From Eledone cirrhosa (Eukaryota): a stretch of 64,000 nucleotides of DNA. The stretch spans positions 93,992,001-94,056,000 of the forward strand of contig OZ024744.1 of NCBI GenBank assembly GCA_964016885.1, given 5' to 3'. The position numbers were made by a program, and so were the translations under genes. The notes below the pieces were generated by a model. The model worked only from the letters and a program-made list of their open reading frames with translations. It ran no database searches and was not told the DNA's origin. Of this stretch, positions 12,901 through 33,900 are shown piece after piece; position 1 is the first letter of the stretch, and each line of letters begins with the position of its first letter.

Positions 12901-15900
12901 TTGTGCGAATGTATGTGTGTGCGTGTTTGTGTCAATGTGTATTTTTGTAAGTGTATCTGTGTTTGCGCATTTATATTTATATACTCATACATATAAATGT
13001 ATGCATATGCACATATACACACACACACACACACATACATGTACACATCAATGTGTTGAAAAAAATCCTAATTATAGAAATGACACTAATTAACACGGTA
13101 GCTAATGAGTCAGTGCCAAGCCAAACTTCTTAACCATTTAGCCATGCTGCAGCCACAGAAAGAAACAGAGTACAATGATCTTATTGCAATAAAGCTTAAG
13201 CTTTATGTAAAAGAAATGTTAAAGACTCACTAATTGGTCATAATTTCCACCACTTGCAATGGTGTGTTGGATAAAACGCTTCTTTCCATTTGGAGCTTCT
13301 TTGTAGTATTTCAATTTCATTTGGAAAAAAAGCCCAGAAAAATGGTAAGCTCTTTGCAGATAACCTAACTGAAATTTTAACTGGAAAAAAAAAAAGAAAT
13401 ACAAAGCAGTTTAAATTATTAAAGATTTTTACAATTTATACTATAATAAGAGTGCTGTCTGTCTATCTGTCTTTTTGTCTGTCCGTCACACTTAGTTTAT
13501 ACAGAGAGAGGGAGCGGAGTGCCAAGTGAGGGATATGTACATAGGTAGAGATGTGTAATAGTAATATACGTGAACGGCAAAGCATAAATGAACTAAGTGA
13601 GAAATTAGGAATAAGAGGGATCAGATGTTGTTTACTCGAGAGAAGACTACGTTGGTATGGCCACGTGATGCGCATGAAAGACAACAGCTGCATAAAAAAG
13701 TGCAGGGCGATCAAAAATTGATGGTAGTTACGGAGTAGGTAGACCCAGAAAAACCTGGGACGATCTGATAAATTCGGACCTTACACACTTGCACCTCTCT
13801 AAGACAATTTCACTGGACCGAGATCTTTGGCGCTACGCAGTAATACAAAAGACCCACCTTGCCTCTGTACAAAGCGAAACCTACAGTCAGTAGGCACCTC
13901 TTAACAAAATATACACCCCAATCCACTACCCCTACCCTATCCTCCCACTCCCACCAACACCACGAGATAATGAGATCGAGATCGTGTAGGTATCACGACA
14001 AAAAAACACACAGTCCACGCTGTAATGTGGCCATGTAGGTAACACGGTAAAAAGTTCCCAGTTCCACACCGTAAATGTGGTTGGTGTTAGGAAGGGCATC
14101 CAGCCGTAGAAAACCTGCCAGATAGTCCTATATGAGCGAGACACGGTCACCCGACCAACTTTGCCTCAAGTGGGACAACTCCCGTCTAACCCATGCTAGC
14201 GTGGAAGATGGACGTTAAACGATGATGATGATGTAGAGAGAGGAAAGAGAAAAGGGTATGCCGTGTTTTCAAGGTGACACAAACAGATAGATAGACAGAA
14301 AGTTACGACATCATCCTCATCTATATAGAGAGGGGGGGGGGAGGTGAAGCAATGAGGGCGACGTCATAACTTTCTCTCTATCTACCTCTTTGTCACTTCA
14401 AAAACACACGGCGTTCCCTTTTCTCTCTCTATCTATGTACATATGTCTCGCTTGACACTCCTTCTCTATATATAAAGTAACTGTGATGGAAGAAGGGACA
14501 GACAGACAGTGCCTTTATTATGATATAGATTATTACAATGTTTGGTTTATGATCATAAATTAAACAAATATGTTATGCTAATCTATATTATAAAAGAAAC
14601 CTGTTTCTCTGCCTGTTTGTCACACGTGTAAGTATATATTATACATATATTTTTTTTTTGTTGGTTGTTTGTATTTCTGTATACCCTTCAACATATGGAC
14701 AGTGCAATACAGACTTCAAAAAAAGACTTTCACTATAATGACAAGTTGTTGCTATTGAGAGAGAAGTACAGTGAGAGAGAGAGTATATGTGTGTGTGTGT
14801 GAAAGATAGATAGATAGAGTGTAATCACCACAGTAACTAATGGGTTTTGATTGAAAACACAAGAATTTTAAGTGCAAGTCAGTCAACACACGTGGAAAAA
14901 AACGTGTGTATGTGCATGTGGGTGGGTGTGTGTTTCTGTATGTCCTAAGGAAAACTAGGCTACAGTTAGTCTTAATAATTGTTTCTACTTTAGGCACAAG
15001 GCCAGCAATTACTTTACTAGTACTTTATTTTATCGACCCCGTAAGGATGAAAAGCAAAGTTAACCTTGGCGGGATTTGAACTCAAACCGTAAAGGGACGT
15101 AACTATGCTAGAAAGCATGGCGTCCAACCCCCTACCAATACTGCCAATTCCCCGCCCTCAATTAGTCTTAATAATAAATATTTTACATTGATCTCAATAA
15201 TAAAAATGTTATAATCAATTGATAAATTACTTACTGTACTTGCCATTCCAAACATTTTACAGTAATGCAGGACCTTTTCCAGTTGGTTGAATCCATTACG
15301 TGCAAGATCTGATATCTTAAATAGTTGGTGTATTTACATTAAAATAAAAGAAAGAAAAAAGAAAATAAGTTTTTAATAAAATATTTCCAAGGTTAACTTT
15401 GCCTGTCATCCTTCCAAGATTAATACAATAACTACATCAAATAATACATTTGTTTAATTCTTAACATCCTGTAATGATTTAGCAGAAAATATCTAAAAAC
15501 AAGTTTGCGAATTTAAATGTTTATAGTATCTTTACTAGTGGACAGATTGCTGTGAAATTTTGCAATATTTGAGTAAAGACTTTAATTTTAGTGTGATACA
15601 GTCATAGTGTTATTTTGTACTTTTCAAGAATGTCTTGCTAATGTGGTTTCATGTGGTTTAATTCAAATGTTTATAGTATCTTTATTAGTCAACAGATCAT
15701 AGTGGAAATTTACAGTAAACTAAAGACATCAATTTTTAATGTGATAGAGTTATAGTACTGTTTTGTACTTTCCAAGGATGTCTTGTTAATGTGGTTTTAT
15801 GTTGTTAGTTAATTCAACTGTATATAGTATTTTTATTGGTGGACAGGTTGTTATGAAAATTTGCAGTAAATTAAAGTAAAGACTTAAAATATTTAATGTG

Positions 15901-30900: not shown

Positions 30901-33900
30901 CCAACACCACCCCTTTCTCTGTAAAGTTATGTTGGTACCACAACATCCAGTCCACACTAAAGAGGTTGTGTAGGTGTCACGACAAAAAACACCCAGTCCA
31001 CGCTGTAATGTGGCCGTGTAGGAGACATGGTAAAAAAGCTCCCAGTCCTCACTGAAAATGTGGTTGGTGTTAGGAAGGGCATCCAGCCATAGAAAACCTG
31101 CCAGATAGTCCTATATGAGCGAGACATGGTCATCCGACCAATCTTGCCTCAAGTGGGACAACTCCCATCTAACCCATGCTAGCATGGAAGATGGACGTTA
31201 AATGATGATGATGATATATATATATATATAAAGAGAGAGAGAGAGAGATACATACATACACACATGTGCACGCATATATATACAGGACTGTGCCTTGCTC
31301 ACACAGAACTGTTTGTCTTGGTTTCTACAGCTGGATGCCCTTCCGAATACCAACCACATTTACAGTGTGTGCTGGGTGCTTTTTGTTGTGACACCTGCCC
31401 AACCACTTTACAGTGTGGACTGGGTGTTCTTTGTCATAACACCTACACAAACACTTTACAGTGTGAACCAGGTGCTTTTTGTCATGATACCAACATGACC
31501 ACTGTCTGAACTAACATCCCACAGACTTCTGCTTAGGCTGCAGGTACAATTTATTTTATTTTATTTTTATTTATTTATTTATCTATTTTTTATAGTGAAA
31601 TATGGGCAGTAGCTGCGGAGTTCATACATAGACTGAAACAGCCATGCTTTGTTGAATGTGCAATGTAATTATGATAGAAAGACAGGACTTGGATGAGCTG
31701 ATGGAAAAGCTGGGATTCAGAGGAATTCGAGGTAGTGTGCAGGAAAGAAGACTTCATTGGTATGGACATGTGAGATGATGGTTGCTGGGTGAAGAAGTGC
31801 CAGGAAATCCCAGTGGAAAAGAAGCGGCAGTAGAGGTAGACCAAGGAAAACCTGTGCGGAGGTGGTAAGAGCTGATCCAAAATTGCTGAGACTCACAGAA
31901 GAGATATCCAACCCATGCAAGCATGGAAAAACAGACATAAAAATGATGATGAGGATGACGATGAAAGAAATATGTATGAATAAATAAATAGATAGATAAA
32001 TAAATAACATCTTACCTGTCTTTTGAAGGTGTTACGATATCTATACTGCATTCAATAAATTCTTTAGGTTGTAAACCAGGTAACTTTTCATGGAAGACTC
32101 TGTCAATATTGTAACACTTCAGATTTTGAATGCGCTTCCGTTTCACATACCTAGCAAACGGAACCTAAGGAGAGAAAAAAAATCGAGAAAATGATTATTA
32201 TTATTATTATAATTCTAGTGATATTTTGTTATATATTTATATCGATATTTTTAACTGTTGGTCAAACAATGATAAACATTGATTGCCAACTGAATTAATT
32301 ATAGAAATATAAAATATCAAGTCGATCAACTTTCGTAAAATCGGACCGAGGAAACAATGTTTCCATTGGTTTTCCAATTGTTAATACTATCTATCAATCG
32401 CAACACCAAGTAGAAGGAGTAACATGAAATAAAATGTCTTGCACATAACGCATCACCTGGTCCAGGAATCGAACTCACAACCTCACGATTGCGAATCCAA
32501 TTCTCTTACAACTCAGCCAAACCAAACAGTGAGTGTGTTTTACTATATATTTCTAGCAACAGTATAACAACATGACCCTCCACAAATATAACAATATTTT
32601 GTTAGTTATTTGTCATCATAATCTGGTGAAGTTCGGCAGGGTCAGGAGGGACAGCATTAACCCAGCTGGTCCCCATGTGGCAGGTAAGTGGATGACCTCT
32701 AGATATACAGATTATTGGACGGAGATACATATGTATTTAGGGCAGCCTATATCTAGCCAAAGTTCATTGTAATGGCGAACTATCTTTGTCAATACAATAA
32801 TACCGAATTGGTGGGCCATCTCCAAATCAAATCTATTCTATATTCTCTGCTTGTGTTTGCCATAATCCTGTTTTCAATTAATTATTTTTGCATTCTGCAC
32901 CTGACGAAATCGCCTAAGTCTTGCATCTAACTGTACCTGTACCCAGCTGCACCTGCACCCAGCTGCACCTCCACCTAGCTATACCTGTGCCTATCTATAT
33001 CTGTGCTTCATCATCATCATCGTCGTTTAACGTCTATCTTCCATGCTAGCATGGGTTTAGACGGATGTAGTTATGCCTGCAGCAAGCTATACCTGCACCT
33101 AACTACACCTACACATAAGTATACCTGCACCTAGTTATGCCTGCATCTAGCTACACATACACATAGTTATACCTGCACTTAGTTACACATGCACATAGCC
33201 ATGCCTGCATCAAGCTATACCTGCACTTAGCTATTCCTACATTTAGCTACACCTGCACATAGCTATACATGTGTCTAGTTATACCTGCACCTAGTTATGC
33301 CTGCACCTAGCTATGCCTGCATCTTGCTATACCTGCACTTAGTTACACATGCACATAGCTACACACACACCCAGCTATACATGCACCTAGCTATAAATGC
33401 ACCTAGCTATGCCTGCACCTAGGTATGCCTGTGCTAAGCCATGCCTACACCTGTAAATTCAATTTTATTAATTCTACTAAATTATTAATTTATTAATTTA
33501 TTTTTTCATGATATTTGAAATAAGCTGAAAGAGATGATGAAATCTCAGAAAGATATTTTGTATCTTACCCGTAAATTATTTGGTAGACAGAGTAACTGTC
33601 CTTGTTGGTCCATAATAGTCATTGGTGAGTCACAGCTTAATTCATGCACCTTGTTTTGTGGCATGAGCAAAGGGGTTTGTATTCTTACCATTCCATGCAG
33701 GCGGAACAATGAAACAAGGATTTCCTGAACTTTACTCTGAAGTAACATATACTTCTGATTGTGGAACTGAAATGTAGGTAATGATATGATAATTGTTTTT
33801 TCATACATTGGGTCCCACCCTTGCAAGCAGGGAAAAGAGGACGTAAAATTATGATGATGATGATGATGATGATGGGAGAAATATATAAGAGAAAAGAAAG

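Follow-up and report, generated by a model that had tools for sequence, protein, structure and literature searches.

GCN2 proteins of metazoans and fungi (human 8t7t and 7qq6, yeast 9f58 and Chaetomium 9c9q) share one domain order, in which an RWD domain and a charged helix precede a kinase domain with an insert, followed by a histidyl-tRNA synthetase (HisRS)-like domain, an anticodon-binding-like domain and a C-terminal domain. Canonical five-domain GCN2 of opisthokonts has, among other features, a pseudokinase, an aromatic-arginine pair in motif 2 of the HisRS-like domain (the m2 pair), the arginine of a GGRYD motif and, in bilaterians, a beta-strand in the kinase insert. There is current dispute over what turns GCN2 on, uncharged tRNA or ribosomes, and over the role of the pseudokinase in cells. 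The pseudokinase is required for activation of yeast Gcn2, its loss giving a null phenotype (PMC4014428), and human cells need it for ATF4 output (PMC12867742); in vitro it is a mostly dispensable domain of human GCN2, activation by ribosomes partly persisting without it (PMC6421407). Here we describe the GCN2 (EIF2AK4) gene of the octopod Eledone cirrhosa, which runs through a 64,000-nucleotide stretch of assembly GCA_964016885.1 (contig OZ024744.1, positions 93992001-94056000; hereafter the window) and encodes a protein in which none of these four features is complete. Coordinates without a prefix are window positions, the exons and motifs being on the minus strand, and those prefixed C28 are positions on the contig. 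Because the pseudokinase, most of the insert loop and tRNA-contacting residues have been lost, as in other octopuses and cuttlefish, the kinase is likely to run partly unrestrained and to depend little on uncharged tRNA; with evenly divided confidence we propose that the gene, the only GCN2 detected in the genome and a probable ortholog, encodes an eIF2-alpha kinase that would be partly de-gated, have an elevated basal activity and scarcely need uncharged tRNA.

The gene was traced with the GCN2 proteins of Argonauta and Octopus vulgaris as exon guides, the intron 1 stretch C28:94146001-94196000 being left out of the sequence examined. The resulting model has 33 exons spread over ~240 kb and an open reading frame of 1,201 amino acids (aa) with one terminal stop, and all 32 introns have GT-AG borders. 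The first homology lead was a single exon 75% identical to a GCN2-like protein of Argonauta; over the kinase and HisRS columns the protein is 85% identical to that of O. vulgaris. A contig from public run X4 (library kind not on record) joins 34762 exactly to 33766, that is exons 17 and 18, and a second X4 contig (depth ~3) covers 32016-32162 in exon 19 with zero differences from the genome, which shows that the motif-2 residues discussed below are no assembly error. An earlier note, made from the letters alone, had placed a GCN2-like kinase at 13231-33766. The motifs that it quoted are real and all lie on the minus strand of the window in one open, spliceable gene, and its range takes in exons 18-24 only (the catalytic part of the HisRS-like domain), the kinase motifs lying outside it, gene-upstream in the window.

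The largest changes are deletions, and they too lie outside that range. Complete coleoid GCN2 proteins are ~1,200 aa long, whereas the complete proteins of other molluscs have ~1,650-1,770 aa (~1,650-1,700 aa for metazoan and fungal GCN2 compared with the 1,201 aa of Eledone), and most of the difference is the pseudokinase. Residue counts given here and below refer to the 120 best of 1,410 homologues, 4 of them cephalopod and 116 non-cephalopod (mostly vertebrates). The pseudokinase columns hold 22-57 residues in coleoids; of the 116 others, 114 have at least 200 there, the two exceptions being N-terminally truncated records, and the spacer between RWD domain and kinase is 127-141 aa long in coleoids against 465-474 aa. 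In Eledone the expected place of the domain is the 13.4 kb between the end of exon 5 (C28:94079438) and the start of exon 8 (C28:94066050), an interval that contains no N and two small exons. A profile of 113 GCN2 pseudokinases run on 214 kb around the gene matched the true kinase exons only. Four Logan proteins of 1,204-1,205 aa are full products of 3.7-4.2-kb contigs, which we read as transcript assemblies; exons 5-6 are not covered by run X4, and splice junctions across the lost pseudokinase were not seen in Eledone itself. In the AlphaFold model of an O. sinensis isoform (mean pLDDT 77) a disordered linker stands at the place of the pseudokinase, and the kinase insert is also disordered. 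No protein identifiable as coming from Nautilus or vampire squid was among the homologues found, and the loss is for that reason dated no further than the octopod-cuttlefish ancestor.

GCN2 in plants is a short form without the pseudokinase, and LdeK1, a GCN2-like kinase of the protist Leishmania, reportedly lacks the domain as well (PMC4889150). These are distant lineages, whereas coleoids are animals that lost the domain secondarily, their relatives all having it; the short plant form is alluded to in PMC12867742. Of 95 complete representatives, 7 have a GCN2 without pseudokinase (P0152, P0158 and P0162, from Diaphorina, Cimex and Apolygus, and P0172, P0192, P0200 and P0253). These records, from three Hemiptera (Diaphorina citri, Cimex lectularius and Apolygus lucorum), a moth and three others, have spacers of 100-137 aa. 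All seven differ from the octopods in keeping both the m2 and the GGRYD arginine, and their inserts are longer than those of coleoids (93-117 aa in the five measured). They sit on branches separate from the coleoids, which indicates independent losses. In part of the Hemiptera the loss is apparently clade-wide; that of the moth may be a gene-model error, since its sister record has the pseudokinase.

The kinase insert is shortened to 60-70 aa in coleoids, less than half the median of 141.5 aa (measurable in 108 of the 116). What is missing is a conserved Trp-containing segment that precedes the acidic run, the acidic runs themselves being retained. In human GCN2, deletion of residues 695-723 confers high constitutive activity, and the acidic patch of the insert recruits eIF2-alpha (bioRxiv 10.64898/2026.09.09.750423). 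The shortest insert outside coleoids, 82 aa in the chiton Liolophura (P0009), is also without the conserved strand, and may be real or the product of an exon skipped in the gene model.

Substitutions at the tRNA-contacting sites, to which the earlier note had drawn attention, are indeed rare in the family and not common in other molluscs. In motif 2 (a ten-residue stretch at 32119-32090 in exon 19, 32016..32164), the KRY arginine, present in 116 of 116 non-cephalopod GCN2s, is Cys in Eledone (32116-32114), and the m2 arginine, present in 111 of 116 (Gln in 2, Lys in 2 and Ser in 1 of the others), is His (CAT, 32092-32090). The m2 pair aligns to human Phe1143 and Arg1144 (yeast Arg1120); the arginine has gone and the Phe is kept, so that only half of the pair is lost. 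The GGRYD arginine (113 of 116) is Asn (13245-13243) within the sequence ASGGNYD (13257-13237) in exon 24 (13231..13380), which was first taken for motif 3 and is in fact the HisB motif adjoining it (PMC11363354). Exon 18 (33569..33766) encodes motif 1 and the LPxDL segment, which reads LPNNL (33586-33572), the Asp found in 109 of 116 being replaced by Asn. At the four sites (KRY, m2, GGRYD and LPxDL) O. vulgaris has the same residues as Eledone (Cys, His, Asn, Asn), Argonauta has Cys, Tyr, Ser and Asn, and a Sepia record has Arg, Ile, Arg and Asn, as does a Logan protein nearly identical to it. The m2 and LPxDL changes are thus common to both coleoid branches, and the KRY and GGRYD changes are confined to octopods.

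The GGRYD arginine probably corresponds to yeast Arg1325, as judged from the equivalence of Gly1326 and Thr1328 and from comparison of 9c9q with 9c9r; the Arg1325Ala mutant neither binds tRNA nor functions (PMC4335047). Position x in LPxDL corresponds to Phe1090 of Chaetomium and Tyr1092 of yeast (9c9q compared with the F1090C chain 9c9r). The Tyr1092 equivalent is paired with the m2 arginine through a cation-pi contact (PMC11363354), and Tyr1092Cys makes Gcn2 constitutively active and suppresses m2 (PMC11363354; PMC4335047). This site is Asn in all four tabulated coleoid proteins (33580-33578 in Eledone), which consequently lack both partners of the cation-pi pair. The suggestion in the earlier note that the kinase is constitutive gains independent support from this loss and from that of the insert strand. 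In the limpets Patella and Lottia (P0006, P0074) the Tyr1092 site is naturally Cys, as in the constitutively active yeast mutant, and the m2 arginine is Gln; the wasp Fopius (P0151) has Ser and His at the two positions. Of 142 new distant representatives, 131 can be read at both sites, and in these a missing m2 basic residue tends to go with a partner site that is no longer Phe, Tyr, Trp or His (p 0.0003, top of 74 columns). The changes in Eledone fall at the sites of engineered variants, namely the yeast m2/Y1092C suppressor and R1325A and the human delta-695-723 and pseudokinase-less proteins (PMC4335047, PMC11363354, PMC6421407, bioRxiv 10.64898/2026.09.09.750423), from which it differs in the residues present (His and Asn), in having half of m2 only, and in combining all changes in a diverged background.

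Taken together, these changes have the pattern of triggers and brakes lost jointly. Judged from the yeast and human mutants, two brakes would have gone, the motif-2 cation-pi clamp (the Tyr1092 equivalent) and the beta-strand of the insert, with the acidic patch that recruits eIF2-alpha staying in place. Once the brakes are off, the activators that release them, that is the pseudokinase, the m2 arginine and, in octopods, the HisB arginine, would become dispensable. The HisRS-like and C-terminal domains, which are predicted still to fold, would act chiefly as a scaffold for the dimer, one whose surface is basic, and the level of output would follow from the amount of kinase expressed, from placement on ribosomes guided by GCN1 and from supply of substrate, not from a tRNA switch. 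We also entertain, as an unlikely extension, a switchless kinase made in coleoids out of the oldest sensor of the integrated stress response: brakes and triggers would have been dismantled jointly, octopods would be blind to uncharged tRNA, and eIF2-alpha phosphorylation would be tonic, perhaps so that neither the heavy editing of mRNAs nor a metabolism that burns protein trips or starves the pathway.

Several points weigh against a de-gated kinase. The raised basal activity is itself a prediction, and a constitutive eIF2-alpha kinase is costly and would have to be tightly controlled. What is known as the m2 phenotype comes from a double mutant, no effect of the Arg change alone was found in the sources cited, and Eledone retains the Phe; Asp1327, a strong brake and relay residue, is retained too, and cuttlefish retain the HisB arginine. 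The co-loss of m2 residue and aromatic partner loses significance (p 0.07-0.10) once His is not counted as aromatic, and also when independent pairs are compared (6.2 same and 1.1 opposite of 13, median p 0.125). The lost insert segment is equated with human 695-723 by alignment, the profile for the insert strand is insensitive to divergent copies, and autoinhibition by this strand is known from one preprint. Non-specific RNA binding by the basic HisRS-like part may persist. A-to-I editing of the m2 His codon could in principle restore Arg; by codon, this is possible for Octopus-type alleles and impossible for those of Argonauta or cuttlefish. No edit was seen at this codon in the single shallow X4 contig (depth ~3), and one supplement file each of PMC8382921 and PMC9068888 has no GCN2 entry, the large editing-site tables being outside those files. 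Acceleration of all domains fits relaxed selection as well as it fits rewiring, and the placement of coleoids outside molluscs in two of the trees described below is a further difficulty.

The main rival view of the same losses, which we regard as possible and clearly less probable than not, is that of a streamlined yet inducible GCN2, off at rest and responding to starvation or stalled ribosomes through GCN1, with other basic residues compensating for those lost. The predicted HisRS-like fold of O. sinensis agrees with human 8t7t (template-modelling (TM) score 0.83), and basic charge is retained, at +19 for the HisRS-like domain against a median of +13 and at +3 against -1 for the anticodon domain. 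The C-terminal domain, which acts as an important brake on human GCN2 (PMC6421407), is folded in the O. sinensis model, although shortened and diverged in sequence (linker plus domain ~122 aa in Eledone against 157), and its dimerisation-domain profile scores 25-33 bits in octopods and 72 bits in the cuttlefish-like protein. The RWD domain (PF05773 on relatives) keeps Glu26 and YPxxxP in the gene model. The genome has one match to an eIF2-alpha Ser51 pattern and one to a GCN1 docking pattern, and these kept partners support the de-gated reading too. The exon with the GCN1 motif aligns to a 2,898-residue fungal chain carrying the same motif, presumably GCN1, the label of the structure entry being different. 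The three Hemiptera without pseudokinase, which keep both arginines, also speak for inducibility, and the m2 basic residue, lost ~14 times on the tree, is evidently not indispensable. Octopods, however, lack both arginines needed for tRNA binding (m2 and HisB), a state that none of the 111 distant representatives readable at all three sites shows; 5 of 6 conserved columns of the anticodon domain are changed, and the losses strike known brakes as well as activators. The earlier note had also offered a response to stalled ribosomes in place of tRNA. A switch of this kind does not follow from the loss of m2, because m2 is required for activation of human GCN2 by ribosomes and the P-stalk as well (PMC6421407; bioRxiv 10.64898/2026.09.09.750423).

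Catalytic residues are retained, as originally noted, in a kinase that is otherwise far from unchanged. The residues kept include the salt-bridge pair Arg585/Glu589 of the back-to-back dimer, Lys619, the alpha-C Glu, the Asp of HRD (47196-47188) and DFG (47136-47128) in the catalytic-loop exon 14 (47104..47205), both autophosphorylation threonines of the activation loop in exon 15 (39848..39985; a ten-residue motif at 39919-39890) and the eIF2-alpha-docking alpha-G Thr (human Thr943) in exon 16 (35785..35934), which encodes alpha-F and alpha-G. In the activation-loop sequence TGxVGTALY, however, Gly, Ala and Leu, present in 116, 114 and 116 of 116 elsewhere, are changed in Eledone. Conserved columns are altered in both parts (18 of 91 in the kinase C-lobe and 10 of 45 in the HisRS part), and every domain is accelerated; an intact core set against a remodelled sensor is thus too simple a contrast. 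Root-to-tip distances are 1.2-1.7 changes per column in coleoids against ~0.3-0.5 in other molluscs, in keeping with the fast evolution first proposed. The anticodon-like and C-terminal domains have diverged most, with 20-22% identity to other molluscs where bivalves and gastropods share 44-50%.

This acceleration, together with the changes at otherwise invariant activation-segment residues, might point to relaxed selection on a kinase that has become weak and can hardly be induced, retained for low basal output or for substrates other than eIF2-alpha, other stress kinases being used in its place; in yeast, loss of the pseudokinase, of m2 or of Arg1325 is each null (PMC4014428; PMC4335047). 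We find this improbable, as the frame is open over 33 exons, octopod domains are 68-87% identical among themselves and all the catalytic, dimer and substrate-docking residues checked are retained. Very improbable, in our view, is a HisRS-like domain retuned to a new ligand, such as dsRNA or ribosomes paused on inosine-edited mRNA. A retained fold with changed ligand residues and a new basic run in the anticodon domain would suit it, as would the heavily edited mRNA of coleoids and the unusual ribosomes of octopus (PMC13321053, which does not mention GCN2). It is opposed by the lack of any new domain or motif and by the different residues to which octopods and cuttlefish have changed (40% identity in the HisRS part, with no common new motif), and nothing points to the dsRNA that the earlier note had named.

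The earlier note further proposed a fast-evolving paralogue and asked whether a second, canonical GCN2 exists in the genome; only one locus was found. With the Argonauta protein, in a stricter first look, there were 37 matches, 21 at the GCN2 locus and 16 to kinase residues elsewhere. The Haliotis pseudokinase gave 28 weak matches (20-37% identity), and a HisRS-like stretch of Gigantopelta gave three, two at the GCN2 locus and one in the authentic HisRS gene (C3:323817758), a positive control from which it follows that the search can see an exon of 44% identity. A Lottia kinase stretch gave 27 matches, the best at the GCN2 locus (82%); 24 others had at most 52%, and none of the 9 inspected is GCN2. 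These nine look like members of other kinase families. Canonical molluscan pseudokinase, HisRS and kinase queries thus found no second GCN2 in the genome, exon-wise searches being lower bounds. Genome searches with the PF13393 and PF23271 profiles returned no matches, missed known genes too and were not used. A paralogue beside an undetected canonical gene, which a long branch, a position outside molluscs in two trees and a possibly incomplete assembly might be thought to favour, is therefore scarcely credible: O. vulgaris, O. sinensis, O. bimaculoides (partial), Argonauta and Sepia have this form as well, every cephalopod record within the 120 best homologues is of the coleoid reduced form, and no cephalopod is among 120 listed pseudokinase matches, a weak test that missed limpet and sea hare too.

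In the phylogeny that the earlier note had called for, coleoids group together at support 100. Trees of 20 and 30 rows place them within a starred lophotrochozoan clade and recover molluscs, coleoids included, as one clade at 77-78, whereas in a 38-row tree and a fast 164-row tree they stand outside molluscs, which may be a long-branch effect. The best sequence and fold matches are to metazoan and fungal GCN2, the closest structure matches of the O. sinensis model being GCN2 HisRS-like and kinase structures, and relatives carry PF13393 in the HisRS-like and anticodon-binding-like region C-terminal to the kinase. An authentic histidyl-tRNA synthetase was considered as the identity of the gene and rejected, exon 19 being closer to GCN2 than to HARS. 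An intronless frame of 1,010 codons at C11:42257399-42260428 (L018 3400-6429) resembles a polo-like kinase 4.

The combination found in coleoids (no pseudokinase, a short insert, and replacement of the m2 arginine and its aromatic partner, with the KRY and HisB arginines replaced in octopods only) is not seen elsewhere among the sequences examined. No prior description of a cephalopod GCN2 was found in the literature searched, most subscription papers being outside the search, and PMC5851622 and PMC13321053 do not treat it. If the proposed reading is true, it would add a feature of cephalopod translation control that is undescribed so far in that literature. Coleoid GCN2 would be a natural test of how a conserved stress sensor works and belongs to a natural allelic series: octopods have lost both arginines, cuttlefish one, limpets the m2 arginine and its partner only, and Hemiptera the pseudokinase only. 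Since each member lends itself to expression in yeast or human cells that are gcn2-null, the disputed questions of how GCN2 is switched are directly testable.

The remaining exons follow the gene model. Exons 1-10 (RWD domain, charged helix, linker without pseudokinase and kinase N-lobe) lie beyond the window at C28:94201045-94058082. Exon 11 (57268..57346) encodes the acidic part of the shortened insert, exon 12 (53119..53145, 27 nucleotides (nt)) the insert end and beta-5, exon 13 (51027..51149) the hinge and alpha-D/E, with Lys at the position of human Ser808, and exon 17 (34762..35004) the end of the kinase domain and the kinase-HisRS linker helices. The HisRS-like domain continues in exon 20 (28675..28741), its insertion domain in exons 21 (22843..22956), 22 (19514..19663) and 23 (15235..15315); exon 24 also carries the HisA region, exon 25 (10368..10481) the motif 3 strand and exon 26 (6780..6914) the start of the anticodon-binding-like domain. 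Exons 27-33, before the window at C28:93991778-93960545, encode the rest of that domain and the shortened C-terminal domain.

The introns hold various repeats. Intron 10 contains a broken Helitron with Helitron_like_N and PIF1 helicase frames (59019-62506, minus strand), LINE reverse-transcriptase and endonuclease fragments lie at 56757-57158 and 45128-45589, also on the minus strand, and intron 13 has a 200-N gap (48568-48767). Intron 22 has a second, degenerate copy of part of exon 22, interrupted by a stop (17170-17274; 45% identity, E 0.18). Three tandem arrays at 15510-15876, 23006-25222 and 38704-39727, with units of 148, 95 and 114 bp, have a 20-base core in common, which is on the opposite strand in the last, and each lies within ~200 bases of an exon. 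Two related 61-bp arrays (17363-17915 and 21717-22330), a 127-bp array (26704-27254) and a 48-bp array of 37 copies (613-2372) are also present. Among the homologues, GCN2 records of Saccostrea and Ostrea (P0288, P0289; ~2,170 aa) carry photolyase/cryptochrome domains, either by fusion or through merged gene models.

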